The notes under the pieces: model-generated
Database searches by the model: none
What the model saw: only the letters and a program-made list of their open reading frames with translations
What the model was told of the DNA's origin: nothing
NCBI GenBank assembly: GCA_038213805.1
Contig: JBBQSO010000070.1
Location: 1 to 27,854, forward strand
Length of the DNA stretch: 27,854 nt
Source: Planctomycetota bacterium
Lineage (GTDB): Bacteria; Planctomycetota; UBA11346
Reading direction: 5' to 3'
Position numbers and translations under genes: made by a program
In this document: positions 3,054 to 16,043 of the stretch, in pieces
Layout: each line of letters opens with the position of its first letter
Position numbering within the stretch: the first letter of the stretch is position 1

Positions 3054-4001
3054 GTGACCAAAAACCCCGAGCGCGCACCACGTCGCCACCACGTCGCCAT
3101 CTCTGGCTCGACCATCGGCACTGGTGATCCGGGCCAAGCTCTGGTGGGCCAGTCCGCCGAGCCGGGTAAGAATGTCTCAACGGGATGTTCCGTCCCTGGG
3201 AGCGCCGAGCCCCAGCTCGGCTCTTCGGGACAGCCGGACCCGAGCCGAGCTGGGGCTCGGCGCTCCCAGGAAAGGCACGCGCGCCAGCGAGATTTTCAGG
3301 GGCCATGGTATTCGCGGGGATATTTGCCCCATTTTGATTCGAAAGGCGTGATTCAATCAATCACCTTTCGACTCGGCGATTCTCTACCACAAGAGAAACT
3401 CCGCCTGCTTGAGCAGGTGATCGCTCATCTTCCCCAGGATGAGCAGGGTATGGAACGTCGGAAGCAGATAGAGCACTGGCTTGATGCGGGCATGGGTTGC
3501 TGCGCTTTACGCCATACGTCCTGCGCTGAGATCATGCAGGACACCTTGCAGCGGTTCGATGGTGAGCGGTACCGTTTGCTGGCGTGGTGCATCATGCCGA
3601 ATCATGTCCATGTGCTGATCAAACCGACTTGGTCATTGGGGAAGATCGTCCAATCGTGGAAATCTTTCACTGGACGGTGGGCATTGGCGCACGCTGCCGA
3701 GCTGGGGCTTAGCGCTCCCAGGGGAGGTGATTCCAGGATTGGCTTCTGGATGCGGGAGTACTGGGACCGACTTATTCGCGATGAGCCGCACTATCTTCGT
3801 ACCATTGCATACATTCATCAAAACCCGGTGGCGGCTGGGCTGTGTCGGAATCCGCATGAGTGGCGCTGGTCGAGCGCCTTTCGTGGGGGCGCCCGTCCTG
3901 GGAGCGCCCGTCCTGGGAGCGCCGAGCCCCAGCTCGGCTCTCAATCAAAAAAGACTGCCGAGCTGGGGCTCGGCGCTCCCAGGGGGCACCAACCGAACTG
4001 A
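3054..4001 (+). CDS. REP-associated tyrosine transposase (RAYT/TnpA-REP, Y1 HUH endonuclease)
   Basis: [32 protein letters not shown] (HUH), [29 protein letters not shown] (catalytic Tyr), WRWSS; REP doublets at both ends; start codon uncertain. Confidence 0.92.
3195..3270. repeat. REP doublet (REPIN-like), 5' side of RAYT
   Basis: 29-bp perfect inverted pair CCTGGGAGCGCCGAGCCCCAGCTCGGCTC (3195-3223) and its reverse complement (3242-3270); each copy holds a GCCGAGC-CCCA-GCTCGGC hairpin preceded by GGAG. Confidence 0.92.
3696..3722 (-). repeat. Single REP copy inside the RAYT catalytic domain
   Basis: GCCGAGCTGGGGCTTAGCGCTCCCAGG, 2 mismatches to the consensus; translated as AELGLSAPR. Confidence 0.88.
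3885..3983. repeat. REP doublet at the RAYT 3' end, preceded by 15-bp tandem partial copies
   Basis: Copies at 3912-3940 and 3957-3983 (inverted); GGG(G/A)GCGCCCGTCCT twice at 3885-3914. Confidence 0.9.
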
Positions 4002-4139
4002 GGTCGCCATTCAGAGCATGAGCAAAAACCTCGAACAGATGCAGCTGAGCGTGAAACCAGTGGCTGCATCTCATAGCTGGCATGCAGTACCAGACAGCGG
4101 GTCATGAGCGATCCCTTAGGGACGTGAGTGCGAGCAGAG

Positions 4140-4210
4140 AGCCCCCGGGAGGCGTCGCACCTCCACCGCCGGTTTACAGGACTGGTGCTCTGCGCTTGAG
4201 CTCCAGGGGC
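4140..4210 (-). tRNA. Degenerate tRNA-Thr(TGT)-like
   Basis: GCCCCTG/CGGGGGC acceptor, GCTC/GAGC D stem, CCAGT-CC TGT AA-ACCGG, GGAGG-TGCGACG-CCTCC; C33, one anticodon-stem mismatch, no encoded CCA. Confidence 0.7.
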
Positions 4211-4305
4211 AAGGATCAAGGAATGGGGAACGTGTCCGCCCGGGCGCGCGCCGTGATGCGGCGCGCGTCCGGGCTCCAGGAAGGCCCGGCCGGAGCCGGG
4301 ATGGA

Positions 4306-4550
4306 CTATTCCCTGAAAGAAGTGGTGGCGGTTGGTGCCGTCGAAGCGGCCGCCTCTCAGGCAGCAGTCCCTGAACAGACGCTGCGAGCCACAGGGGCAC
4401 AGGTCCTTGCGGCCGAGCCGCTCGATCAGGTCCTTGTCGCCATGGACGGTGCGCAGCCCGCGTTTCACCTTGGTTTCCGACGGGAAACCGTGGCGGCGCT
4501 TGCTACTGGTGGTGAAAGGAGGGTTCGTCGGGGAAGTGATCGGTTGCCAT
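4306..4550 (-). CDS. Small SEC-C (CPCGS..F..CC) zinc-binding protein, apparently split by two +1 frameshifts
   Basis: Core frame reads [63 protein letters not shown]. The RBS (GGAGG 4555-4559) and ATG (4550) lie in another frame, and the nearest stop TAG (4306-4308) lies in a third frame. Confidence 0.75.
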
Positions 4551-4628
4551 ACGGCCTCCAGGTTTATGGGGAACGAGTCGCGAGGTGCGAGAGAGGACTC
4601 AGGGAGTCAACCGACGCCGAAAAAGGCG

Positions 4629-4707
4629 TGGTCCTCGCGGTGGGAGTCGAACCCACATGGGACCATTACGGTTTCGACCGTTTATAAGACGGAGCCGCTA
4701 CGCGAGG
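4629..4707 (-). tRNA. D-armless tRNA-Ile(TAT)-like with a long variable region
   Basis: Perfect acceptor CCTCGCG/CGCGAGG plus A-CCA; T arm GTGGG-TTCGACT-CCCAC; CCGT-CT TAT AA-ACGG; only TAGCGGC in place of the D arm; about 20-nt variable region. Confidence 0.75.
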
Positions 4708-4881
4708 TCAGGGGACCTGCGTAGCGGCTATTCGCCGGGCCTTGGCGCGGCGGGGGTGCCGCTTGGCGCCAGGGGCGGCGGGGCCGTGGCATGCCGCCTC
4801 GCGGAGGTACCAGTCGGCGTGCGCACGCAGCCGGGGGTAGTCCTTCAGCGGAAGGTCGTGGGTGATGGGGATGCGGATCAT
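4708..4881 (-). CDS. Small basic hypothetical protein (57 aa) inside the tRNA array
   Basis: AGGAG (4890-4894) upstream of ATG 4881; MIRIPITHDLPLKDYPRLRAHADWYLREAACHGPAAPGAKRHPRRAKARRIAATQVP*; the stop abuts the tRNA 5' end. Confidence 0.6.
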   Translation of the reverse strand: MIRIPITHDLPLKDYPRLRAHADWYLREAACHGPAAPGAKRHPRRAKARRIAATQVP

Positions 4882-4967
4882 GGTTGCTGCTCCTGGGATG
4901 GGTTGCTGATGACGTGGTGGATTCCATGCGGTCGAAACACTCGACCGTCGGTGACCCTGAGAACGAT

Positions 4968-5043
4968 TGGCATCAAGGGAGGGATTCGAACCCCCGGCCG
5001 CCGCGTTCGAAGCGCGGTGCTCTTCCGACTGAGCTACCTCGAT
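4968..5043 (-). tRNA. tRNA-Arg(TCG)
   Basis: ATCGAGG/CCTTGAT-G-CCA; D loop AGTCGGAA (A20); CCGCG-CT TCG AA-CGCGG; TTCGAAT T loop. Confidence 0.93.
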
Positions 5044-5046
5044 AGC

Positions 5047-5120
5047 TGGACCCCGAGCCGGGATTCGGACCCGGATCTGCACGCTGGCGGCGTGCCGTCC
5101 TGCCATTGAACGACACGGGG
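5047..5120 (-). tRNA. tRNA-Gly(GCC), atypical (C33, C55)
   Basis: CCCCGTG/CTCGGGG-T-CCA (U73); GCACG-CC GCC AG-CGTGC; CCGGG-TCCGAAT-CCCGG. Confidence 0.8.
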
Positions 5121-5139
5121 AACACAGACGTGGCGCGGG

Positions 5140-5211
5140 CACCACCGGGAGGAATCGAACCTCCGTCAGCGGATTTGGAATCCACGGCCCTGGCCATTGG
5201 ACGACAGTGGC
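5140..5211 (-). tRNA. tRNA-Trp(CCA)
   Basis: GCCACTG/CGGTGGT-G; GTGGA-TT CCA AA-TCCGC; GGAGG-TTCGATT-CCTCC; no encoded CCA end. Confidence 0.88.
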
Positions 5212-5320
5212 AAAAAAAAGACCTCTGCGATCGCGCTGTCAGTGCGCATGAGCGCCGGTCTGCCGGTCGCCGTGATCGCTGCTCTGGCATCTTCCGCCGA
5301 GGTCAAACGGGGAGGATTGA

Positions 5321-5392
5321 TGGGGTGCCCGGGAATCGAACCTGGTTCACTCGCTTAAAAGGCGAATGCATCGCCACCTATGCTTGCACCCC
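5321..5392 (-). tRNA. tRNA-Lys(TTT)
   Basis: GGGGTGC/GCACCCC-A; GCAT/ATGC D stem; TCGC-CT TTT AA-GCGA; CCAGG-TTCGATT-CCCGG. Confidence 0.87.
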
Positions 5393-5460
5393 GCAAGGCG
5401 AGGCCGGCGTGGAAGGGTCTGCCGCAGCACGTTGGCCGCTTCCGCATGGATCGAAGACGA

Positions 5461-5543
5461 TGGACACGTCGGGTGGAGTCCGACCACGAGCCGGCAGGGT
5501 TGCGGCCTGCCCCGTCCGCGGGACGGTCGATGGCTCCGACGTG
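5461..5543 (-). tRNA. Non-canonical tRNA-Cys(GCA)-like RNA (8-bp acceptor / 4-bp T stem)
   Basis: CACGTCGG/CCGACGTG-T-CCA; GGCAGG-CC GCA AC-CCTGCC; GTGG-TCGGACT-CCAC; 6-bp hairpin in the D position. Confidence 0.65.
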
Positions 5544-5546
5544 AGG

Positions 5547-5621
5547 TGGCGCCCCCAGCGGGAATCGCACCCGCGTTCCCAGATCGACAATCTGGTGTCC
5601 TGGCTGCTGGACGATGGAAGC
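5547..5621 (-). tRNA. tRNA-Asp(GTC)
   Basis: GCTTCCA/TGGGGGC-G-CCA; CCAGA-TT GTC GA-TCTGG; GCGGG-TGCGATT-CCCGC. Confidence 0.88.
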
Positions 5622-5627
5622 ATGGAG

Positions 5628-5700
5628 TAGCGGGTGTGGGACTTGCACCCACCTGCATGGCTTATGAGGCCAGACTGGAACTGTCTCCAGCGAACCCGCG
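5628..5700 (-). tRNA. tRNA-Met(CAT), initiator-like (C1 mismatched with position 72)
   Basis: CGCGGGT/ACCCGCT-A; TGGC-CT CAT AA-GCCA; GTGGG-TGCAAGT-CCCAC; lacks the canonical three consecutive G-C anticodon-stem pairs. Confidence 0.78.
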
Positions 5701-5911
5701 AGGTGAAACGTGGTGATCGCAACAAGCGATCACCGGAGAAAACGGCTGCTGGTCGGGGACTCCGACGACCTGGATTCAGTCAGTCGCGCTCATCAAAGAG
5801 GAGACTACCAGGCTTGAGACAGATCTGATCAGAACGCGTAACGTTCCTGCAGCAGCCGAAAAGAAGTGAACGCATCTGCCCGTCGGCGCAGCCGACCCAG
5901 CCAGTCCTGGC

Positions 5912-6021
5912 GTAGGGGGCAGCGCCGTAGGCGCGTTCGTTGGGGGAGGCCGCCTGATGCGACTCCCCCAACAAAAAGCTCGTTGGGGGAGGCCGCCTGA
6001 TGCGGCTCCCCCAACAAAAAG
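5912..6021. repeat. Tandem palindromic repeat (two 42-bp units, period 43) with a GTAG-headed leader; second repeat family
   Basis: TCGTTGGGGGAGGCCGCCTGATGCG(A/G)CTCCCCCAACAAAAAG at 5937-5978 and 5980-6021; 10-bp stem GTTGGGGGAG/CTCCCCCAAC; related copy at 7385-7450. Confidence 0.9.
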
Positions 6022-6091
6022 GACAAGGTCGGATTCGAACCGACGGCCTTCCGGGTGCAAACCGGGAGCTCTTCCGCTGAGCTACGTGCCC
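6021..6091 (-). tRNA. tRNA-Ala(TGC); 3' end abutted by the repeat
   Basis: GGGCACG/CTTGTCC with G3-U70; CCGG-TT TGC AC-CCGG; GTCGG-TTCGAAT-CCGAC; A73-CCA replaced by the repeat's T run. Confidence 0.88.
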
Positions 6092-6173
6092 ATGACCCGC
6101 CGCGCGAACGCGGCGGTGATGATGTCTGCTACGAGGACCGGTTGTCAAAAAACGGGAAGAAGAGGATGCCGGT

Positions 6174-6208
6174 AAAACGAAGAACCCCGGCGGGTTAGGC
6201 CGGGGTTC
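6174..6208 (-). terminator. Intrinsic terminator / attenuator of array unit 2
   Basis: 10-bp perfect stem GAACCCCGGC/GCCGGGGTTC, 7-nt loop, followed by TTCGTTTT on the minus strand. Confidence 0.8.
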
Positions 6209-6233
6209 AGGAATGCGCTGGCAGGACGTCGTC

Positions 6234-6473
6234 CTAGCGTGGCATTCGGGATTCCCCGGTGGTGGTAAGCTGATCGCACGCGTCATTCACAACGCTTCTG
6301 GCGGACTTTATGCGGACGTGCGCACAACCATCCGCTTCGACCACGGACCAGTCCCGCGACCGCGGCTGCGTCTGCAGTGCTGGCATCATCTTGGATTTGG
6401 TTGTGGCGGGACTGGACATGGACGGCGCAGCTCCTGAAAGGAAGGTGAACGGGATGGCGATGGTTTGGTTCAT
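6234..6473 (-). CDS. Putative leader ORF of unit 2 (79 aa; alternative RBS-linked start at 6419)
   Basis: ATG 40 nt downstream of TTGACA; stop about 25 nt before the terminator; no recognisable domain. Confidence 0.4.
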   Translation of the reverse strand: MNQTIAIPFTFLSGAAPSMSSPATTKSKMMPALQTQPRSRDWSVVEADGCAHVRIKSARSVVNDACDQLTTTGESRMPR

Positions 6474-6513
6474 CGCGGTGTGGAATACATAACCGGCATC
6501 AAATGAGTGTCAA
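6474..6513 (-). promoter_or_regulatory. Sigma70-like promoter P2 (internal to the array)
   Basis: Perfect TTGACA (6508-6513), then TATGTATT in the -10 region, in an AT-rich patch. Confidence 0.6.
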
Positions 6514-6600
6514 CAGGGAAAATGCCTGAAAAAACGGGATGCGGGCGACGTGAAGCATAGGAGATGTGATTCCTGGCGCGAGCTGCGCGCCGCAAGGTCC

Positions 6601-6672
6601 TGCTCCAACAGGGAATCGAACCCTGCTTCCCGGATTGAAATTCCGGAATCCTGGCCACTGGACGATTTGAGC
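6601..6672 (-). tRNA. tRNA-Glu(TTC)
   Basis: GCTCAAA/TTGGAGC-A (1 mismatch); CCGGA-AT TTC AA-TCCGG; CAGGG-TTCGATT-CCCTG. Confidence 0.87.
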
Positions 6673-6703
6673 GTGAACGCGGAACATGGATGAGAATGCA
6701 GAG

Positions 6704-6779
6704 TGGCTGGCAGGGCCGGATTCGAACCAGCATAATCCCGATTAACAATCGGGCGCTCGACCAGTTGAGCTACCTGCCA
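6704..6779 (-). tRNA. tRNA-Asn(GTT)
   Basis: TGGCAGG/CCTGCCA-G-CCA (U1-A72, G73); CCCGA-TT GTT AA-TCGGG; TTCGAAT. Confidence 0.93.
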
Positions 6780-6788
6780 ATGTGGACC

Positions 6789-6895
6789 TGGTGCCTGGCC
6801 GTGGAGTCGCGACGGGCCGCAGGCCCTAGTCCCTTGCGGAAACCAGGAGCCTTCCGGACCAGAACCGGACGTTCTACCGATTGAACTACCCGTGA
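6789..6895 (-). pseudogene. Interrupted, chimeric tRNA-Gln(CTG)
   Basis: Intact 5' part (TCACGGG, D arm, TCCGG-TT CTG GT-CCGGA, CCTGG-TT), then a 31-nt insert (6810-6840), then CGACT-CCACG-GCCAGGC-A-CCA, which does not pair with the Gln 5' strand. Confidence 0.75.
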
Positions 6896-6902
6896 GCGTG
6901 AA

Positions 6903-6976
6903 TGGTTGGAGGTATGGGAATCGCACCCATGTCTCGGGAATCACAGACCCGTATGCTGTTACTGCACCAACCTCCA
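6903..6976 (-). tRNA. tRNA with GTG (His) anticodon and atypical acceptor (A73, no G-1)
   Basis: TGGAGGT/ACCTCCA-A-CCA; CGGG-T CT GTG AT T-CCCG; ATGGG-TGCGATT-CCCAT. Confidence 0.82.
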
Positions 6977-6985
6977 AAGAAAATA

Positions 6986-7062
6986 TGGTCGGAACGGCGG
7001 GACTTGGACCCGCGACCTCTGCTGCCCAAGAGCAGCGCTCTGCTGGACTGAGCTACGTTCCG
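6986..7062 (-). tRNA. tRNA-Pro(TGG)
   Basis: CGGAACG/CGTTCCG-A-CCA (C1-G72, A73); CTGCT-CT TGG GC-AGCAG; T loop TCCAAGT. Confidence 0.9.
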
Positions 7063-7074
7063 GAATGGTGAGAC

Positions 7075-7149
7075 TGGTCCCCGACCGTGGGATCGGACCA
7101 CGGACCTTCCGCCTGTCGTGCGGACGCTCTGCCGCTGAGCTAGCCGGGG
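7075..7149 (-). tRNA. tRNA-Val(GAC), atypical (C33, C55)
   Basis: CCCCGGC/GTCGGGG-A-CCA; TCCGC-AC GAC AG-GCGGA; CGTGG-TCCGATC-CCACG. Confidence 0.85.
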
Positions 7150-7152
7150 AGA

Positions 7153-7224
7153 TGCGCGCGGATGGAGTCGAACCACCGGCCTTCCGCGTATCAGACGGAC
7201 GCTCCACCACTGAGCTACGCGCGC
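7153..7224 (-). tRNA. tRNA-Ile(GAT)
   Basis: GCGCGCG/CGCGCGC-A; TCCGT-CT GAT AC-GCGGA; GGTGG-TTCGACT-CCATC. Confidence 0.92.
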
Positions 7225-7236
7225 TGAAATCAAAAC

Positions 7237-7308
7237 CTGGCTCGGATGGATTCGAACCATCGACTTCCTCCTTCGCAGAGAGGTGCTCTTCCGCTGAACT
7301 ACGAGCCA
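7237..7308 (-). tRNA. tRNA-Arg(GCG)
   Basis: TGGCTCG/CGAGCCA-G; D loop AGCGGAA (A20); CCTCT-CT GCG AA-GGAGG; GATGG-TTCGAAT-CCATC. Confidence 0.9.
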
Positions 7309-7384
7309 TTATGAACAAGAATCCACGTGCCATCGAAACCCTGAGCCTTGACCCACCAAAAAAAGAGCTGTCCGTTGTCGCGAG

Positions 7385-7470
7385 GGGGGCAGCGCCGCAG
7401 GCGCGTTCGTTGGGGGCGCCGCCTGCTGCGGCTCCCCCAACAAAAAGCTCTTCCGCTGAACTACGAGCCA
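7385..7470. repeat. Third copy of the GTTGGGGG..CCCCCAAC element fused to a duplicated tRNA-Arg(GCG) 5' fragment
   Basis: 7385-7450 aligns with 5915-5981; 7447-7470 is an exact 24-bp copy of 7285-7308. Confidence 0.88.
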
Positions 7471-7522
7471 AAACGATCTGAGAAAACTCTAGAGTTGTCA
7501 AAGCGGCGAAGAGAGGCGTGAC

Positions 7523-7561
7523 GAAACGCAACGACCCCCGGGAGGATCTCCCGGGGGTCGC
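7523..7561 (-). terminator. Intrinsic terminator / attenuator upstream of array unit 1
   Basis: 13-bp perfect stem CGACCCCCGGGAG/CTCCCGGGGGTCG, 3-nt loop, TTGCGTTTC tail on the minus strand. Confidence 0.8.
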
Positions 7562-7593
7562 TTTGCGGCGTTAGGCGGTTGGAGTGCTGGACT

Positions 7594-7692
7594 CTATCCG
7601 CTCGTCACCTGGCAAGGCGTCCCCGGTCGACCGGGAAACTCCCGGTGATTCGGCTGACAGACGCTTGGACGGATGACGGAGGCGCAGCTCAT
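7594..7692 (-). CDS. Putative leaderless leader peptide (32 aa) of unit 1
   Basis: MSCASVIRPSVCQPNHREFPGRPGTPCQVTSG*; ATG lies exactly 35 nt after the first T of TTGACT; stops 33 nt before the terminator stem. Confidence 0.6.
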   Translation of the reverse strand: MSCASVIRPSVCQPNHREFPGRPGTPCQVTSG

Positions 7693-7727
7693 GGCGGTAG
7701 TGATACCTACTTGAAACATAGAGTCAA
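7693..7727 (-). promoter_or_regulatory. Sigma70-like promoter P1 of the tRNA array
   Basis: TTGACT (7722-7727), 16-17 nt spacer, TATCACT, in the AT-rich divergent intergenic region. Confidence 0.65.
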
Positions 7728-7812
7728 CAAAAAGATCATGCCGACGTGAAAATGCTGGTAAATAGCGGAACAATCTCTACGTTTTGCACCGCCAATCGAG
7801 GTCTTCGCCAGC

Positions 7813-8763
7813 ATGTCAACTGACCACCTCCCGCTGCCCGACATCCTCCGCGGCCTGATCCTTGCGGCTGGCCTCAGCCAGCAGGAGACGGCGCTGCGCT
7901 CCGGCATCAGCCCGGGTTCGGTTGCGGCGTTGTGCGTGCGCATCCCCAAGCCCTTGCTCACCTGGTTGCGCCTGGTCGCGGCGCTCGGCGGGCGCGTGGG
8001 CGTCGCCTGGCAGGATCGCACGTGGACGGTGCCGATGCCGAAGATCGCGGCGCCGGTGCTGGAACGCGAATGGGCGTCGTGGCGCACCCGGCGCATGGTC
8101 ACCACCATCAACCACCTGCGTTCCGCCGCGCCCAAGACCAAGCGCGCGCTGCTTGAGGAGCGCGCGCGCACCTATGCCGCCAACGAGGAGGCGCGCCTGC
8201 GTCAGCGGCTCGGCGAGCTCAAGAGCGCGACCAAGGCCTTTGCCGGTGCGCACCGCAGCCAGGGGCTGCGCGTCGCGCTGCGCCTGATCGCGACCAGGAT
8301 CGGCCTGCGCGCCGAAGAGCTCACCCTGCTCTCTGGCGCCAGTCTTTCCGCCTGTCAGCTCGCCCTGGGCGAGCTGCACGACGGCCGGCTCGCGACCATG
8401 CACCGGCTGTGCTCTGCGCTCGGCGCGCGCCTCGAGATCGCGCTGCCCGCCGGCAGCATCGCGATCGGCTTCTGCCCGCCCGGTGATTGGCGTCCGGGCA
8501 TGGCCGAAACGGCGGCCGAGGGCGAGGCCGACGCGCCGAGCGCGCGTACGCCCAAGGATAACCAGAACCGCAGCAGTCTAGGCAGCGCCGAGATGCTGGC
8601 GCTCTTCGACCAGGGCCTGTCCATCGGCGCCATCGCCCGCCAAGCCGGCGTCAGCCGCCAGCGCGTGCACAAGCTGGCAATGGACAACGGCCGCACGCAG
8701 CGCCGGCAGGCGGTACGCGAGCAGCGCGTCGCGAGCGGTCGGGAGCTGCTGGGCGTATCCTAG
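7813..8763 (+). CDS. Multi-HTH DNA-binding protein (two XRE-like units and a C-terminal HTH)
   Basis: AAGLSQQETALRSGISPGSV..LVAALGGRV; IGLRAEELTLLSGASLSA..TMHRLCSALGARLEI; DQGLSIGAIARQAGVSRQRVHKL. Confidence 0.8.
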   Translation: MSTDHLPLPDILRGLILAAGLSQQETALRSGISPGSVAALCVRIPKPLLTWLRLVAALGGRVGVAWQDRTWTVPMPKIAAPVLEREWASWRTRRMVTTINHLRSAAPKTKRALLEERARTYAANEEARLRQRLGELKSATKAFAGAHRSQGLRVALRLIATRIGLRAEELTLLSGASLSACQLALGELHDGRLATMHRLCSALGARLEIALPAGSIAIGFCPPGDWRPGMAETAAEGEADAPSARTPKDNQNRSSLGSAEMLALFDQGLSIGAIARQAGVSRQRVHKLAMDNGRTQRRQAVREQRVASGRELLGVS

Positions 8764-11328: not shown

Positions 11329-11655
11329 CTCGTGTCCTGTCCGAGAAATTCACTGTCTTTGACGTGGCCGCGCCAGCCGTCTGCGGCGTTGCATCCTCCT
11401 GGCGATAGCGTTGCTATCGCCGCGTCGGAGACACCTTGCAGCCAGCCGACGGGGCCGGCGCCCTCGGCAGCGAATCCCCCGGACAGGACACGAGCGGCCT
11501 GGGCCCAGGGCGGGCTCCGGCCGCCGGTTTGTATTTCATCCGACTTTGGGCTATGATCAGGGGTGGGGGCGGATCCACCGCCACCAAACGGGACTCCGCG
11601 CCACGGCCGCAGGCGGCGTCGGCGTCGGCGTCCGATCCCATCCACCGGGAGCCGC

Positions 11656-13788
11656 ATGCCCCAGCCGCGCCAGCGTTCGACCCGCCCCCGCGGCCAGGGT
11701 TTCGCCAACCAGAGGCCTGCGGGCGACGACACCGAGCGCGTGCGGGTGCTGGCCACGTCACGCGGCACCCACGCGATCATGGCCGGCGCAGCAGCGCTGA
11801 TCGGCCTCGGCGCCCTGGGCATGTGGTTGCTGTGGGGTGGCCAGGTGCAGCCGCTCAAGAAGGCGGTCGCGTTGCCATCGCCGTTGGCGGCGCCGGCGCA
11901 AACCACGGCCATTGCGCCGGAGGCGCCGGCCCCGGCGGTAGCTGCGCTCCCCCCCGCAGCCACGCAGCCGCGCACCTTCGTGCGGGGCATCAACTTGGGC
12001 GGCGAGGGACTGACGGTCGACGGGCACCGCTGGCTGGCGCACGCGCAGGCGCTCGCCAACGGCTTGGAACTGGGCGCGGGCGCGGCGATTGCCGTGCCCG
12101 CGCCGATCACCGCGGCGCGCCTCGATTTCGAGACCAAGACCATGCTCGACAGCGGCCTGGCCGCGAGCGGACCGGTGATGCTCGGTCAGCGGCTGCCGAA
12201 CGGCGATTACGAGGTGTCGTTGTGGGTAGCGGGTGCACAGGGCATCGACCCCGCGTTGCTGGTGCTGCGCCTCGACGGCGTCGACGTCACCATCGGCAAG
12301 GCGGTGGGCACGGCGACCTGGAGTCGTCTCGGCCCATACCGCGTGACCGTCAATCAGCGCCGCCTCGACATCGCGATCAGCGGCCTCGGCGGGGCCCATC
12401 TCGCGGGGTTGGCCATCGCCGCGCTGGGCACGGGCCAAGCGACCGTGCCGCCGGTGGTCGCGCTGACCGCACCGGAGGTGGGTGCGCAGCTCTATGGCGA
12501 TGAGATCGTGCTGTTCGCCGACGTCATCCCGGCGAACGGGGACATCGCCCGCGTTGAATTCTTCGATGGCCGGCGCCGGCTCGGCGAGGTGCTGAAGCCG
12601 CCCTACGCCTATACGTGGCATGGTGCGGAGCTGGGTCCCCACGAGCTGTCCGCGGTGGTCAGCGACCATCGTGCGGTGCAGGCTGGCTCAGGCGCGGTGG
12701 CGATCACGGTCAAGCCCGAGAGCGACGCGCCGGAACGCGTCCTGGAGCGCGCGCGCAGCGCGATGCGCCGTCTCGGCATCGAGCCCACGCGCCTGGCGGC
12801 GGACGGCGCCGGCCTGGCCCTCGACCTCAACGGCAGCGACATCGACGACCTCTCCTGGGTCAAGGGCCTGCCGTTGACCGGGCTGTCGCTGGCGAAGACC
12901 AAGGTGACTGATCTCGGTGTGCTCGCGGGCATGCCGCTGCGCCGGCTCGACCTCGGTGAGACCCACCTGCGTGGCTACGCCTTCCTCAAGGGCCTGCCGC
13001 TGGTCGAGCTGCGCATGTGGGGCTGCGACATCTCAGACCTGTCCCCGCTTGCCGGCATGCCGCTGGAGTACCTGCTGCTCGGACACTGCGCGATGACCGA
13101 CCTGCGACCCCTCGCCGGGATGCCGCTGAAGCGCCTGTTCGCGCAGGAGAGCGCCATCGCCGACCTCGCACCGCTTGCGGGCATGGCGCTGGTCGAGCTC
13201 GATATCGGCGCCACCAAGGTGCACGATCTCGCGCCGCTCACGGGGATGCCGCTCACCTTTCTCAGCATCTGGAACTGCCCCGTCACTGACCTGCGCCCGC
13301 TCGCCGGCATGCCGCTCACGCACCTCGCCGTCGACGGCGTGAAGGCCGATTTCGCGCCACTGCACGGCATGCCGCTGGTCTACCTCTCGATCGTCGACAC
13401 CTCGATCGCGGACCTCGCGCCGCTCGTCGGAGCGCCGCTGCGGTGGCTGCGCATGTGGAAGACCAAGGTGTCGTCGCTCGCGCCGCTGGCGGGCATGCCG
13501 CTGGAGAGCCTGGTAATGGGCTACACGCCCGTCTCTGATCTGACGCCGCTGATCGGACTGCCGCTGATCGAACTCGACATCATAGGCTGCGAGCAGCTGC
13601 GCTCGCTCGTCCCGGTGGCGACCCTCGACAAGCTGCAGAAACTCGCCCTGCCGCGCCTCGTCCCCGGCGTCGAGAGCCTGCGCCACCTGCCGGAATGGGT
13701 GCGCGTCCGCGACGGCGCCCACGACCAGGCGGTCGCGCTGGTCGACTGGTTCAGGGACTACGACGCGGCGCAGCGCACCGGGAAGTGA
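11656..13788 (+). CDS. Membrane-anchored protein: beta-sandwich, bacterial Ig-like domain, about 13 internalin-like LRRs (paralogue 1)
   Basis: TM segment near the N-terminus; PPVVALTAP..IARVEFFDG..PPYAYTW; repeats of DLxPLAGMPLxxL; GGGAG before ATG 11656. Confidence 0.88.
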   Translation: MPQPRQRSTRPRGQGFANQRPAGDDTERVRVLATSRGTHAIMAGAAALIGLGALGMWLLWGGQVQPLKKAVALPSPLAAPAQTTAIAPEAPAPAVAALPPAATQPRTFVRGINLGGEGLTVDGHRWLAHAQALANGLELGAGAAIAVPAPITAARLDFETKTMLDSGLAASGPVMLGQRLPNGDYEVSLWVAGAQGIDPALLVLRLDGVDVTIGKAVGTATWSRLGPYRVTVNQRRLDIAISGLGGAHLAGLAIAALGTGQATVPPVVALTAPEVGAQLYGDEIVLFADVIPANGDIARVEFFDGRRRLGEVLKPPYAYTWHGAELGPHELSAVVSDHRAVQAGSGAVAITVKPESDAPERVLERARSAMRRLGIEPTRLAADGAGLALDLNGSDIDDLSWVKGLPLTGLSLAKTKVTDLGVLAGMPLRRLDLGETHLRGYAFLKGLPLVELRMWGCDISDLSPLAGMPLEYLLLGHCAMTDLRPLAGMPLKRLFAQESAIADLAPLAGMALVELDIGATKVHDLAPLTGMPLTFLSIWNCPVTDLRPLAGMPLTHLAVDGVKADFAPLHGMPLVYLSIVDTSIADLAPLVGAPLRWLRMWKTKVSSLAPLAGMPLESLVMGYTPVSDLTPLIGLPLIELDIIGCEQLRSLVPVATLDKLQKLALPRLVPGVESLRHLPEWVRVRDGAHDQAVALVDWFRDYDAAQRTGK

Positions 13789-13943
13789 GCCACGGGCGCC
13801 GCGAGCGCTCCAGGCGGATCCGTTCGCGCGTTGAGTTCACCCAAGGTCCGGGATATGATGAAGTTCGCCCATACCGGCAATCGACCGGCGCTGGGGTGCC
13901 TCTCACGTCGGCCAGGCGCGCGACTTCGTGCCCAGGACCACCT

Positions 13944-16043
13944 ATGCCCCAGCCACGCCGACCATCGGATCACCCGCACGCCCCGCGGCGGCGCGGACGC
14001 GGCCAGGGCGACGACACCGAGCGCGTGCGCATCCCGGCCGCGCGCGGCAACCAGGCGGTCACCGTTGGAGCGGTCGTGATCGCCGTGATCGGCGGCGTGC
14101 TCCTGTGGGTGATGTGGTCGCGGTCGACGCCGGTGGTGATGGTGCCGCCCGCCGCAGCCCCGGCCCCGGCCCCGGGGATCGCACCGGCGCCACCGACCCA
14201 CGGATCTCCGCCCGCGCCGGCCGTGGCGAAGACTTTCGCGCGCGGCATCGCCTTCGGCACCGCGGGGGTGACCATCGCCGGCCAGCGCTGGCTGGGACTG
14301 GCCCAGGCGCAGGCGAACGGCCTGGAGCTGGCCGCGGGCACGGCGGCTGCGCCGCCGGCGTCGATCGCTGCGTCGCGCCTCGACTTCGAGACCAAGACCA
14401 TGCTCGACGGCGGCCTCGCCGCGCGTGGGCCGGTCAAGCTCAGCCAGGCGCTGCCCAATGGCGACTACGAGGTGACCCTGTGGGTCGCGGGCGCCCAGGG
14501 GGTCGATGCGTCCCTGCTGGCGCTGCGCCTGGACGGCAGCGACGTGGCGGTCGGCGCGGTCACCGGCGCGGCGACGTGGCGCCGCCTCGGCCCGTATCCG
14601 GTCGGCGTGCGCCATCGTCTGCTGGCGATCTCGCTCGACGGCCTCGGCGCTGCGCACCTGGCCGGGCTCGCCCTGACGGCGCTGGGCAGCGGCGAGGCGA
14701 CCGTGCCGCCCGTGGTCGGCCTAACCAGCCCGGGTCCCGGTGCGCAGCTCTACAGCGGCGACATCCCGCTGATCGCGGACCCCATCCCCGGGACCGGACG
14801 CCTCGCCAAGGTCGAGTTCTTCGACGGCGCGACCAGGCTCGGCGAGGCGCTCGCGCCGCCGTGGACGTGGACCTGGAGCCACCCCGCGAGCGGCCGCCAC
14901 GAACTCTCCGCGGTGGCCAGCGACGTCGCGGCCGCGCGCGCGAGCAGCGCACCCGTGGCCATGACGATCAAGGCCGACGATGGCTCACCCGATCTGCGCA
15001 TCGAGCGCGCCAAGGACGCGCTGCGCGGACTCGGCCTGGAATCGTCGCTGCTGGTCCAGGACGCCGACGGCCTGCACCTCAGCCTGCGCGACACCACCAT
15101 CACCGACATCGCGTGGCTCACGGGCGTGCCGCTCACCGACCTCGACATCCGCGGCTCCAGGCTCACCGACCTCAGCGCGCTCGCCGGCATGCCGCTGCGC
15201 CGCCTGCTGATGAATGACGCCCGACCACGCGACTTCACCTTCCTCAAGGGCCTGCCGCTGACCGAGCTGCGCGTCTGGAACTGCGGCATGCCCGATTTCG
15301 CGCCGCTCGCCGGCATGCGCCTCGAGCTGCTTGAGGCCGGCAAGAACCCGGTGACCGACCTGCGCCCGCTCGCCGGCATGCCGCTGCGCTACCTCTATCT
15401 GCAGCACAACGCGATCGTCGACCTCGCCCCGCTCGCCGGGCTGGCGAAGCTGGAGGACCTCGACATCGGCGGCACCCGGGTGCGCGACCTCGCCCCGCTC
15501 GCCGGGCTGCCACTGCTGCAACTGCGGCTGTGGGGCTGCCCGCTGGCCAGCCTGGCCCCGCTCGCAGGGGTGCGGCTGAAGCTGCTCAACATCAGCGGCT
15601 GCAACCTCGATTGCACGCCGCTCAGGGGCATGCCGCTCGAGGAGCTGACCATCGGCGAGAGCACCCTGAGCGACCTCGCGCCGTTCGCCGGCATGCCGCT
15701 GCGTCGCCTCGACCTGTGGAATTCGCACGTGGTCTCGTTGGCGCCGCTCGCCGGCATGAAGCTGGAGATGCTGCGCATGGGCTACACCCCGGTCACCGAC
15801 CTGGCGCCGCTCGCCGGCATGCCGCTGGTGGAGCTCGACCTGCGCGGCAGCGAGATGCTGGGCTCGCTCGCGCCGGTCGCCACCCTCGCCAGCCTGCGCA
15901 GCCTGGGCCTGCCGGCGCACCGTCCCGATCTCGACCGACTGCGCAGCCTGGGCAACGTGCAGATCCACGAGATCGACCGCCCCGAATCGCGCGATGTGGG
16001 CGTGTTCTTCACGGCACTGGACGCGGCGAACGGGAAGCAGTGA
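13944..16043 (+). CDS. Membrane-anchored Ig-like/LRR protein (paralogue 2)
   Basis: Collinear with paralogue 1 (RLDFETKTMLD, LPNGDYEV.LWVAGAQG.D, RMGYTPV.DL); AGGA before ATG 13944. Confidence 0.88.
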   Translation: MPQPRRPSDHPHAPRRRGRGQGDDTERVRIPAARGNQAVTVGAVVIAVIGGVLLWVMWSRSTPVVMVPPAAAPAPAPGIAPAPPTHGSPPAPAVAKTFARGIAFGTAGVTIAGQRWLGLAQAQANGLELAAGTAAAPPASIAASRLDFETKTMLDGGLAARGPVKLSQALPNGDYEVTLWVAGAQGVDASLLALRLDGSDVAVGAVTGAATWRRLGPYPVGVRHRLLAISLDGLGAAHLAGLALTALGSGEATVPPVVGLTSPGPGAQLYSGDIPLIADPIPGTGRLAKVEFFDGATRLGEALAPPWTWTWSHPASGRHELSAVASDVAAARASSAPVAMTIKADDGSPDLRIERAKDALRGLGLESSLLVQDADGLHLSLRDTTITDIAWLTGVPLTDLDIRGSRLTDLSALAGMPLRRLLMNDARPRDFTFLKGLPLTELRVWNCGMPDFAPLAGMRLELLEAGKNPVTDLRPLAGMPLRYLYLQHNAIVDLAPLAGLAKLEDLDIGGTRVRDLAPLAGLPLLQLRLWGCPLASLAPLAGVRLKLLNISGCNLDCTPLRGMPLEELTIGESTLSDLAPFAGMPLRRLDLWNSHVVSLAPLAGMKLEMLRMGYTPVTDLAPLAGMPLVELDLRGSEMLGSLAPVATLASLRSLGLPAHRPDLDRLRSLGNVQIHEIDRPESRDVGVFFTALDAANGKQ

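Follow-up and report, generated by a model that had tools for sequence, protein, structure and literature searches.

The 27,854-nucleotide (nt) contig JBBQSO010000070.1 of a Planctomycetota bacterium (assembly GCA_038213805.1, lineage UBA11346), the whole of which is referred to here as the window, carries on its minus strand (7308–4140) an array of 15 transfer RNA (tRNA) genes above the Rfam cut-off and three degenerate tRNA-like units, which are arranged in two transcription units and enclose a small SEC-C zinc-motif gene, fsSEC-C, the reading of which requires two +1 frameshifts. By its gene content and its conservation in relatives, the array appears to be a chromosomal, vertically kept and partly eroded L-type tRNA array, that is, a second tRNA set beside the housekeeping set. 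This eroded two-unit array with its candidate helix-turn-helix (HTH) regulator is probably a tRNA-backup module which carries a frameshift-dependent sentinel protein. Comparison of fsSEC-C copies shows a conserved frame structure and a restriction of the predicted shifts to UUU_Y, and their neighbourhoods show repeated linkage to tRNA arrays and tRNA repair; slippage at these sites would occur during translation and would depend on stress.

A second tRNA set and its relatives

The window is one entire contig (27.9 kb) of a draft genome of 5.5 Mb with 69% GC in 180 contigs, which is 90% complete. ARAGORN and Rfam were used to call tRNA genes on the window and Infernal on the whole genome, the Rfam tRNA cut-off being 29 bits. 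Infernal found 57 tRNAs in the genome, 42 of them outside the array and spread over 33 contigs, while the array places 15/57 within 3.2 kb of the 5.5-Mb assembly, a clustering beyond chance. L-arrays have been defined by at least 20 tRNA genes and at least 2 per kb (Tran et al.); the density here is 4.7 tRNAs per kb and the count is 15, and the count of 20 is reached in relatives of the same lineage, such as G005 with 31 and G014 with 23 tRNAs.

ARAGORN recognized 13 co-oriented tRNAs on the minus strand from 7308 to 4968, to which Rfam added Thr-TGT (4210–4140; 42 bits) and the whole-genome Infernal search an Ile-TAT-like tRNA with a long variable arm (about 4707–4632; 31.8 bits), the scores of all 15 ranging from 32 to 69 bits. 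Unit 1 (6601–7308, minus strand; ARAGORN, Rfam 45–69 bits apart from the remnant) contains the genes for Arg-GCG (7308–7237), Ile-GAT (7224–7153), Val-GAC (7149–7075), Pro-TGG (7062–6986) and His-GTG (6976–6903), a Gln-like remnant (6895–6842; 24.5 bits, under the cut-off), and the genes for Asn-GTT (6779–6704) and Glu-TTC (6672–6601). Unit 2 (4140–6091, minus strand; ARAGORN at standard and relaxed thresholds, Rfam and Infernal) contains Ala-TGC (6091–6020), a Met-CAT-like unit (5700–5627), Asp-GTC (5621–5547), a Cys-GCA-like unit (5543–5461), Lys-TTT (5392–5321), Trp-CCA (5212–5137), Gly-GCC (5120–5047), Arg-TCG (5043–4968) and the Ile-TAT-like gene (here 4713–4630), followed by the fsSEC-C gene (4550–4306) and Thr-TGT. 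The Met-CAT-like and Cys-GCA-like units were detected by ARAGORN only at relaxed thresholds, and the former is also kept in G003. ARAGORN calls of Arg-gcg (contig C20), Ala-ggc (C7, C98 and others) and Tyr (C9) had no Infernal confirmation and were treated as false, and Rfam matches to miRNA families, YrlA, ar9 and Tymo_tRNA-like lay far under their cut-offs, on hairpins or tRNAs. The open reading frame (ORF) orf81 (4927–4682) and the long plus-strand ORFs over the array were set aside as spurious high-GC ORFs, as they have no Pfam match and are conserved only as DNA identity in G010.

The original prediction, which listed about 18 co-oriented tRNA-like genes with their anticodons, is thus borne out, and its statement that no ribosomal RNA (rRNA), phage or integrase gene lies nearby holds too, though a Y1 transposase ORF adjoins the array and hairpins of the repetitive extragenic palindromic (REP) type abut and interrupt it. 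Its word "non-canonical" is partly right: the array tRNAs share 53–77% identity with the housekeeping isoacceptors of their own genome, and CCA is encoded by 8/15 of them (absent from 7/15) versus 13/13 of the housekeeping tRNAs compared. The array tRNA-His (6903–6976) lacks G-1 and has A73 in place of C73, while the housekeeping tRNA-His has both; G-1:C73 is the usual identity pair of bacterial histidyl-tRNA synthetase. The array tRNA-Ala retains G3:U70. Nine array anticodons duplicate housekeeping ones (at the same 53–77% identity), while Arg-GCG, Arg-TCG, Lys-TTT, Ile-GAT, Ala-TGC and Ile-TAT were seen only in the array of this 90% complete genome, in which no contig with the rRNA-operon tRNAs (Ile-GAT, Ala-TGC) was found.

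A DNA search across 41 related genomes (G numbers) revealed syntenic arrays within the genus (five genomes) and in a further three genera of the family, with 29 tRNAs in G024 (17 + 12 on two contigs) and 19 in the array of G007 besides the totals given above. Their order is Arg-GCG, Ile, (Tyr), Val, Pro, Pro, His, Gln, Glu, Gln, Phe and Asn, continued by Ala, Met, Asp, Cys, Lys, Lys, Trp, Gly, Gly, several Arg, Thr, Leu and Ser. As the order is the same and the relatives are fuller, the window array is a reduced version, from which Tyr, Phe, both Gln, Lys-CTT, most Arg and all Leu and Ser tRNAs are missing. Among 14 anticodon families with 5–9 orthologs each, compensatory change was seen in 143/292 stem pairs and only 65/1978 cells were unpaired; the array tRNAs are under structural selection. 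Mean identity within these families is 60–81%, and it is by such low identities that the array tRNAs might be called fast-evolving. The kinase and GH2 genes which flank the array are common to G000, G003 and G010, so inheritance within that group is vertical. The proposal that the array is a conserved, regulated-looking unit rather than a set of randomly decaying tRNAs agrees with these co-varying stems, and the suggested search for synteny of array, SEC-C gene and HTH gene recovered the gene order, the divergent HTH gene, both promoter cassettes and the SEC-C gene in up to five genera.

The fsSEC-C gene, its predicted serial +1 sites and its genomic company

The fsSEC-C gene (4550–4306, minus strand) matches the Pfam SEC-C model PF02810 (E 2e-6; 28 bits, cut-off 20.4) and contains the zinc motif CxCx8-9C(C/H). 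Its ATG (4550–4548) follows a Shine–Dalgarno (SD) sequence, site 1 (UCC_UUU_C) lies at 4520–4514, site 2 (UUC_UUU_C) at 4321–4315 and the stop TAG at 4308–4306; with each TTTC read as a single step, the conceptual product has 80 residues and ends at a conserved stop. All copies in the planctomycete family start with GGAGG-N5-ATG, and that frame closes after 13–18 codons. Past this early stop, indels come in multiples of three and variation falls on third positions in the +1 frame, the switch lies at a conserved C-TTT-C, and three frame-dependent coding segments can be distinguished. No conserved start codon was found in the new frame, two relatives having GTC or GTA in place of the GTG at 4468. 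A second TTT_C near the 3' end is followed in the +1 frame by (R/K)(E/D)-stop, an ending which is conserved though the stop is TAG, TGA or TAA, while the 0-frame tails are long and unrelated among copies, that of the window being such that it would cross tRNA-Thr. An extra +1 shift at AAA_AGA is required in 6/11 family copies, AGA being the rarest Arg codon in the window genome (0.54 per 1000). An assembly error is excluded, as contigs from a second sample are identical over this sequence and an approximately 88% relative from another study has no indel within fsSEC-C.

Further copies were sought with a degenerate pattern of two motifs (GFPSET and CPCGS), which matched 15/401 Planctomycetota genomes versus 0 for the reversed control, and at least 120 loci in a species-representative collection. 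Among the matches listed are members of Acidobacteriota, Verrucomicrobiota, Pseudomonadota, Chloroflexota, Bacteroidota, Armatimonadota, Methylomirabilota and Thermoleophilia, and the isolates Chthoniobacter flavus Ellin428, Massilia pinisoli and Pelomonas cellulosilytica. For each copy a path was searched from an SD-preceded start to a stop spanning all motifs, with +1 shifts permitted only at TTT or AAA_A and endings of the form F-(R/K)-(E/D)-stop preferred. Such a path exists for 21/23 planctomycete copies and 63/80 loci of other lineages, and 83 copies from at least eight phyla were kept after removal of one duplicate. Three shifts are required in 60 of them, two in 18, four in 4 and one in 1.

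TTT accounts for 225/233 shift sites and is followed by C or T at 223/225, the other 8 sites being AAA_A. The next codon of the 0 frame is CGA (53), CAA (46), TGA (42), CAG (22), TAG (19), CCG (13), TAA (9) or CAC (8) at most sites, so that a stop occupies the 0-frame A site at 70/233, and AGA follows AAA at 6 sites. In a control in which one codon at a time was allowed to shift (102 copies), +1 at TTT solved 77, the next best codon (CAA) 16, no shift 1 and -1 at TTT 1. Codon-position entropy over the 83 copies is 0.71, 0.62 and 1.44 bits for positions 1, 2 and 3, and position 3 is highest in all five alignment blocks, marginally so in the N-terminal block before site 1 (1.33, 1.27, 1.42). The shifts fall at five conserved positions, four of them Phe codons, namely PxF before a basic segment, the Lys codon of AAA_AGA, RRF before KKCC, GxF before DG, and F before RE-stop, and different lineages use different subsets; the three sites of G170 are UUU_UGA, UUU_UAA and UUU_UAG. 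A conserved ORF break with a +1 coding signal, a slippery P-site codon able to re-pair, and a slow or stop A-site codon, which together characterize programmed +1 frameshifting, thus all appear to be present. UUU_Ynn is a known +1-prone sequence of bacteria according to the account in PMC5009743, and UCC_UUU_CGU is given as the PA-X site of influenza virus in PMC3498833. In two copies, L073 (in G346) and L131, seven consecutive T occur at site 1, where +2 in all, or -1, would be needed; these T might reflect either a genuine variant or an error in the homopolymer.

The frame changes might instead be bypassed by RNA polymerase slippage, by a tRNA decoding four bases, or by coupled small ORFs through termination and re-initiation, which is very unlikely. 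Runs of 6–7 T at some sites (G115, G346, L131) would suit a slipping polymerase, while most sites have three T only, which is generally regarded as too short for transcriptional slippage. Coupling would be favoured by the 0-frame stop directly after TTT at the 70 sites mentioned above and by an ATG just past site 1 in 4/11 family copies, yet the later segments have no start codon of the new frame in the window, G024 and G060. As for unusual decoding, G37 replaces the bacterial A37 in 9/12 array-encoded tRNA-Phe(GAA) genes, whereas these tRNAs all have 7-nt anticodon loops, the window array has none of them, and most fsSEC-C copies lie in genomes without a nearby array. The array tRNA-Phe genes were noted at loci L011, L012, L013, L014, L018, L097, L101, L135 and L136, while the housekeeping tRNA-Phe of the window genome has A37; G37 precludes modification of the i6A type. 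Candidates for a quadruplet-decoding tRNA, obtained with relaxed ARAGORN, were poor and odd-looped and were rejected, including one with a 6-nt loop in G007, which was judged spurious. Ribosomal +1 slippage is retained as the more probable explanation of the frame structure.

Neighbourhoods of fsSEC-C were compared within ±4 kb at 79 loci from other lineages (L numbers). Between 3 and 22 tRNAs lie near the gene at 12/79 loci, in Burkholderiales, Xanthomonadales, Verrucomicrobiota and Methylomirabilota, and an HNH homolog at 9/79. Homologs of RNA ligase, of a Pnkp1-like protein with HD and kinase domains, of Hen1 or of Thg1 occur at 6/79, all planctomycete. In family f4 (L069, L070, L109, L114, L131 and L137), homologs of the Pnkp1-Rnl-Hen1 genes adjoin fsSEC-C, while L098 and L102, from one Schlesneria and one Blastopirellula genome, have Hen1 only. 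In G115, a NIF phosphatase, DUF7638/9, DUF6193, fsSEC-C, an RNA ligase, an HD+AAA_33 protein and Hen1 are encoded on one strand. The portions of PMC4411300 drawn on here describe repair of ribotoxin-cleaved tRNA in vitro by Pnkp1-Rnl-Hen1. Further neighbours are YqeY (three times), a fragment of a class II aminoacyl-tRNA synthetase and a YbaK-type editing domain; RtcB and Ro60 are encoded near the copy L078, and a second Ro60-like gene near L096. A tblastn search of the window's own genome found no RNA-repair genes.

This company may also be read as a sign that the array mainly protects against tRNA-cleaving toxins by supplying divergent, cleavage-resistant isodecoders rather than serving a general stress response, a reading which is conceivable though held only tentatively. 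It would account for the 53–77% identity of the array tRNAs to their housekeeping counterparts, for the presence of fsSEC-C in repair loci for ribotoxin damage of the Pnkp1-Rnl-Hen1, Thg1-like and RtcB/Ro60 types, and for a Barstar and MazF pair beside one fsSEC-C copy, and mycobacterial arrays are termed a putative anti-defence system in PMC12803027. Set against it, no toxin or nuclease gene was seen in the window; moreover, such protection is compatible with, and not exclusive of, the favoured explanation of a tRNA-backup module with a frameshift-dependent sentinel.

Two copies of fsSEC-C lie in an unannotated gap of Candidatus Manganitrophus plasmids (L197, CP114562.1 90090–90233; and CP114554.1), between a tyrosine recombinase gene and SIR2/ATPase genes resembling a defence island. 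A tblastn search of all PLSDB plasmids found no fsSEC-C beyond these two, and NCBIfam contains no dedicated fsSEC-C model, only YchJ-like models giving motif matches under threshold. A phage origin of fsSEC-C was rejected, as there were 0 matches in 50,697 phage records and 1 in IMG/VR.

Promoter cassettes, candidate regulator and inserted elements

The original prediction placed a promoter, leader, terminator and boxA-like cassette ahead of each unit. The promoter, ORF and terminator exist and are conserved, cassette 1 being kept in 9/9 aligned array heads of unit 1 and cassette 2 in 7/7, while the "boxA-like" box TTGACAAC is more likely the -35 element of a second promoter. In the nine arrays cassette 1 has, in this order, a -35 box (TTGAC), an ATG that never varies and lies near the expected start of transcription, an ORF of 32–40 codons, a strong terminator and, 25–35 nt on, the motif GCTTTGACAAC. 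This motif resembles the boxA of Escherichia coli loosely, and in its TTGAC core as well as in its spacing from the tRNA it is taken here to fit a -35 box.

All elements of both cassettes lie on the minus strand. The promoter-like P1 of unit 1 (7699–7727) consists of TTGACT, about 16 nt and TATCAC; it was unflagged by a consensus scan, and its TTGAC is invariant in 9/9 arrays. Leader ORF 1 (7594–7692; 32 codons and a stop), whose invariant ATG sits about at the expected P1 transcription start, contains the dyad CACCGGGA–TTTCCCGG, which overlaps a stretch encoding the peptide core Y-Q-x-N-H-R-E-F-P-G, kept with synonymous changes in 8/9 arrays (translated by eye). An in-frame TTT_C (about 7630–7650) lies within this dyad, its TTT being kept in 8/9 arrays, and a +1 slip there would reach a conserved TGA six codons ahead of the 0-frame TAG (by eye). 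Terminator 1 (7522–7561) is a GC-rich hairpin with a T-rich tail, of which the terminator scan flags a part and RNAalifold predicts the stem in 9/9 arrays with several compensatory pairs. A TTGACA box follows at 7497–7502, and such a box stands after the unit-1 terminator in G000, G003, G004, G005, G007, G010 and G024. Cassette 2 begins with a TTGACA -35 box (6508–6513), invariant in 7/7 arrays, and leader ORF 2 (6234–6419) has 61 codons from the conserved CCATGTCC, the ATG context of which is invariant in 7/7, while its peptide (translated by eye) is weakly conserved. Terminator 2 (6182–6208; 10 pairs, 8 of them G-C, and a T tail in the scan) is conserved and co-varying in 7/7. It is followed by the promoter-like P2 of unit 2 (6119–6148; TTGACA, 18 nt, CATCAT), the best site of the region with 10/12 positions, the box of which also occurs in G010 and G024. 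A hairpin CCGCCGCG...CGCGGCGG (about 6094–6113) stands directly 5' of tRNA-Ala and is kept with altered sequence in G024, G014 and G007; it could be a processing or leader structure.

The array was also predicted to be attenuator-gated. If leader-peptide attenuation were the main control, the speed of ribosomes on the leader ORFs would set the terminator read-through into the tRNAs, which is rather unlikely. Its attraction is that a promoter, a leaderless-looking ORF, a conserved dyad and a strong terminator are kept in 9/9 and 7/7 arrays, that the CCGGGGG stretch of leader 1 could pair with the CCCCCGG arm of the terminator (by eye), and that leader ORF 1 retains an in-frame TTT_C. Against it stand the TTGACA box found 25–35 nt past each terminator, at promoter distance to the first tRNA as in housekeeping tRNA promoters (TTGAC lies 41–54 nt upstream of 12/42 housekeeping tRNAs in the window genome), the poor conservation of the ORF 2 peptide, and the result of RNAalifold, which predicted no conserved antiterminator in the aligned array heads. 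As each terminator is trailed by a promoter-like box of its own, attenuator gating is unproven. The promoter, ORF and terminator element could be an attenuator adding read-through to P2, a small independent gene or small RNA, or a platform for the HTH protein.

The divergent multi-HTH protein (7813–8763, plus strand; 316 aa) is the candidate regulator of the array, identified by Pfam, synteny and an AlphaFold2 model. Pfam recognizes HTH_3 at residues 16–41 and a resolvase-type HTH (HTH_7) at residues 255–287. A homolog with 37–93% identity stands divergently at 8/8 array heads on a contig in relatives, and 36 homologs were found among 5.8 billion proteins, both organism-named ones being planctomycete. 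The model (mean predicted local distance difference test score 88.5) has two modules of an HTH plus a beta-hairpin, a long helical hairpin, a disordered linker and a C-terminal resolvase-like HTH; a Foldseek comparison with the PDB yielded no chain at E <= 0.001, single HTH motifs alone being aligned. The multi-HTH protein probably controls the array. It and the SEC-C ORF, both of which had been named beforehand, are real genes by Pfam and by their relatives. The window protein is unrelated to TrcR, with HTH_3 and HTH_7 in Pfam and three HTH units in the model versus the ribbon-helix-helix (RHH) fold of TrcR described in PMC10272220.

At the other end of the array, an HNH gene is represented by its first approximately 12 codons (4070–4105, minus strand), whose N-terminal residues agree with those of the complete HNH genes (PF14279, PF01844) that lie within the G003, G005, G007, G014 and G024 arrays. 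A Y1 transposase ORF (3054–4001, plus strand; IS200-like, possibly a REP-associated tyrosine transposase; Pfam Y1_Tnp, E 4e-7) and a REP-like hairpin (3905–3988) stand in place of the rest of the gene. An intact paralog, of about 65% identity, of the array-type HNH gene lies alone on another contig, C105 of G000 (15023–15604), on which Infernal found no tRNA. REP-like hairpins (TTGGGGGAG...CTCCCCCAA) at 3905–3988, at about 7395–7446 and, twice, at about 5915–6019 flank and interrupt the array, and the repeat also occurs on contigs C68, C31, C92, C10 and C3. At 7395–7470 (minus strand), a duplicated 5' half of tRNA-Arg-GCG (7470–7447) precedes such a hairpin, an insertion common to the closest relative, G010, and missing from seven other arrays.

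A rival reading sees in the array what decay has left of a horizontally acquired L-array that no longer serves a function, its cassettes and small ORF being inherited baggage. The reduction of the HNH gene to about 12 codons, with a Y1 transposase and a REP hairpin in its place, would agree with this, as would the three degenerate tRNA units, the half tRNA duplicated beside a REP insertion, the Tyr, Phe, Gln, Lys-CTT, most Arg and all Leu and Ser tRNAs absent versus relatives, the 7/15 tRNAs without encoded CCA and the tRNA-His without G-1; L-arrays are moreover described in PMC8421152, in the parts of it concerned here, as borne by horizontal gene transfer and mostly silent. A relic is nonetheless unlikely: the 15 tRNAs still score 32–69 bits, and among relatives their stems show co-variation, with 3% of cells unpaired. 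Conserved features are retained in the window by the regulator gene, by fsSEC-C and by each cassette, a second sample carries the identical sequence, and the common flanks of G000, G003 and G010 indicate vertical inheritance there.

Apart from the array and unrelated to it, two tandem paralogous large proteins (Big_7, leucine-rich repeats) are encoded at 11563–16043, next to a GH2 glycosidase and an M90 peptidase.

Proposed function and known systems

In the tRNA-backup module proposed here, the tRNAs would be made from two transcription units, each behind a promoter, a short ORF and a terminator followed by a second promoter-like box, and the divergent, lineage-specific multi-HTH protein at the head would control them. 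Translation of fsSEC-C would begin at the SD-preceded ATG, and its body and stop would be reached only by +1 slips of peptidyl-tRNA-Phe from UUU to UUC, which in the window would take place at codon 12 (UCC_UUU_CAC) and codon 78 (UUC_UUU_CAG). The peptidyl-tRNA-Phe, G·U-paired on UUU, would re-pair on UUC or UUU if reading of the 0-frame codon in the A site is delayed. As such slips would compete with decoding of the next 0-frame codon, which is a stop, CGA, CAA or CAG at 191/233 sites, full-length protein would be made mainly under poor A-site supply or with a shift-prone tRNA-Phe, and with two to four serial sites its yield would follow a power law in the slip rate and climb very steeply. 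The trigger would be an empty A site (tRNAs cleaved, uncharged or exhausted), limiting release factors, or an array-borne G37 tRNA-Phe taking over. Once made, the protein would use its basic segment and zinc knuckle to act on ribosomes or RNA, and would serve as a sentinel or effector of the translation state which travels with tRNA-backup arrays and tRNA-repair modules. What makes a link between the array and translation stress plausible is that the SEC-C gene within it depends on ribosomal +1 slippage and elsewhere adjoins tRNA-repair genes. The broader proposal, that fsSEC-C is across bacteria an ultrasensitive, translation-encoded sentinel made only after serial UUU_Y slips and engaging backup tRNAs and co-encoded repair enzymes, is a tentative one, more doubtful than the reading of the window itself.

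Several observations weigh against the proposed module and its sentinel. The window array is eroded, with a truncated HNH gene, three degenerate tRNAs, REP insertions and many tRNAs missing, and as it also lacks tRNA-Phe, the local system may be decaying; the promoter-like box past each terminator argues against simple attenuation. The window's own 0-frame A-site codons, CAC and CAG, are common ones. An ATG lies 2–3 codons after site 1 in 4/11 family copies (G024, G059, G060 and G061), in which coupling or re-initiation could stand in for the first shift, and an in-frame TTT_CCA at GFPSET must stay unshifted in some copies, yet TTT_CCG is a required site elsewhere. Because shifts were restricted to TTT and AAA_A and one ending was preferred, the site counts are conditional on the model, for which the codon control is a partial remedy. 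No path was found for 17/80 wide loci and 2/23 planctomycete copies, the causes of which include start-codon detection, contig ends and, in G022, an extra base at a non-slippery place. Finally, about 70% of the copies in other phyla have neighbours without visible link to tRNA, mostly unrelated enzymes.

Among known systems, the trn operon of Anabaena sp. PCC 7120, as presented in the passages of PMC8421152 and PMC10272220 used here, is similar in its long, non-periodic run of co-oriented supernumerary tRNAs, its HNH gene and its dedicated transcription factor, and the same sources count planctomycetes among the phyla with L-arrays. It differs in its regulator, TrcR being an RHH protein encoded elsewhere while that of the window is a 316-aa multi-HTH protein divergent at the head of the array, and in that two internal promoter, ORF and terminator cassettes and a frameshift-dependent SEC-C gene are present here. 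The Anabaena operon is normally silent and induced by translational stress, according to the same passages; for the window, a search for RNA runs containing its sequence found none, only DNA contigs matching it. An association of L-arrays with HNH genes is noted in PMC8421152 and PMC5966550. The Mycobacterium arrays described in the latter resemble the present one in their combination of array, XRE/HTH regulator and HNH, the commonest there (about 87% of G2 arrays), and in their translation-related coding sequences within arrays; they are plasmid- and phage-borne, in contrast to the chromosomal array here, the flanks of which are common to close relatives. Terms for SEC-C or frameshifting have 0 occurrences in PMC5966550. 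tRNA arrays with HNH genes and HTH regulators are already known, and of the combination which the original prediction held to be undescribed, the regulator and cassettes of this lineage are what is new.

As far as covered by the parts of PMC5009743 consulted, the frameshift genes prfB, encoding release factor 2 (RF2), and antizyme share with fsSEC-C a short 0-frame ORF, a required +1 shift, re-pairing in the P site and a slow or stop A-site codon, and serve as sensor and effector, but have one site, CUU or UCC, as opposed to 2–4 serial UUU sites in a gene of about 80 codons. No upstream SD-like stimulator is evident at fsSEC-C sites, for which no systematic search was made. The UUU_Y sites treated in PMC5009743 and PMC3498833 (bacterial UUU_Ynn, Yersinia YopN-TyeA and PA-X) follow the same tetranucleotide logic, many family sites being xxC_UUU_CGA; those cases, as there described, are single low-efficiency sites giving an extra product, whereas full-length fsSEC-C needs all shifts, at positions conserved across phyla. 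Pnkp1-Rnl-Hen1, in the form known from the consulted part of PMC4411300, has its homologs by fsSEC-C in family f4, while the partner module in the window is a tRNA array. Neither a SEC-C gene in tRNA arrays nor serial UUU frameshifts are described in the literature searched, including PMC4758250, PMC5966550, PMC3711429 and bioRxiv 2025.10.02.679949; the supplements of the surveys, which were not read, could list such a gene.

tRNA arrays are widespread and poorly understood, one functional case, that of Anabaena, having been worked out, and the lineage studied here offers a compact conserved architecture for study, with its regulator, two cassettes and HNH gene. To our knowledge, bacteria offer no precedent for a short gene that has up to four obligatory +1 sites, is conserved in several phyla and is linked with tRNA backup and repair. 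Standard gene callers miss fsSEC-C, which lacks annotation in two plasmid records and a model in NCBIfam, although its conservation extends from Planctomycetota to Acidobacteriota, Verrucomicrobiota and Pseudomonadota. Several carriers have been cultured, among them Pelomonas cellulosilytica P8, whose copy lies within a 6-tRNA array with HNH, Massilia pinisoli JCM 31316 and a Gimesia strain with the repair operon, so that the matter is open to experiment. If the slips prove real and depend on conditions, fsSEC-C would parallel the RF2 and antizyme sensors, with several sites instead of one, and form a direct genetic link of tRNA supply, tRNA repair and reading-frame maintenance, and it would represent a widespread serial-frameshift regulatory device which provides tRNA arrays with a built-in read-out of translation health.

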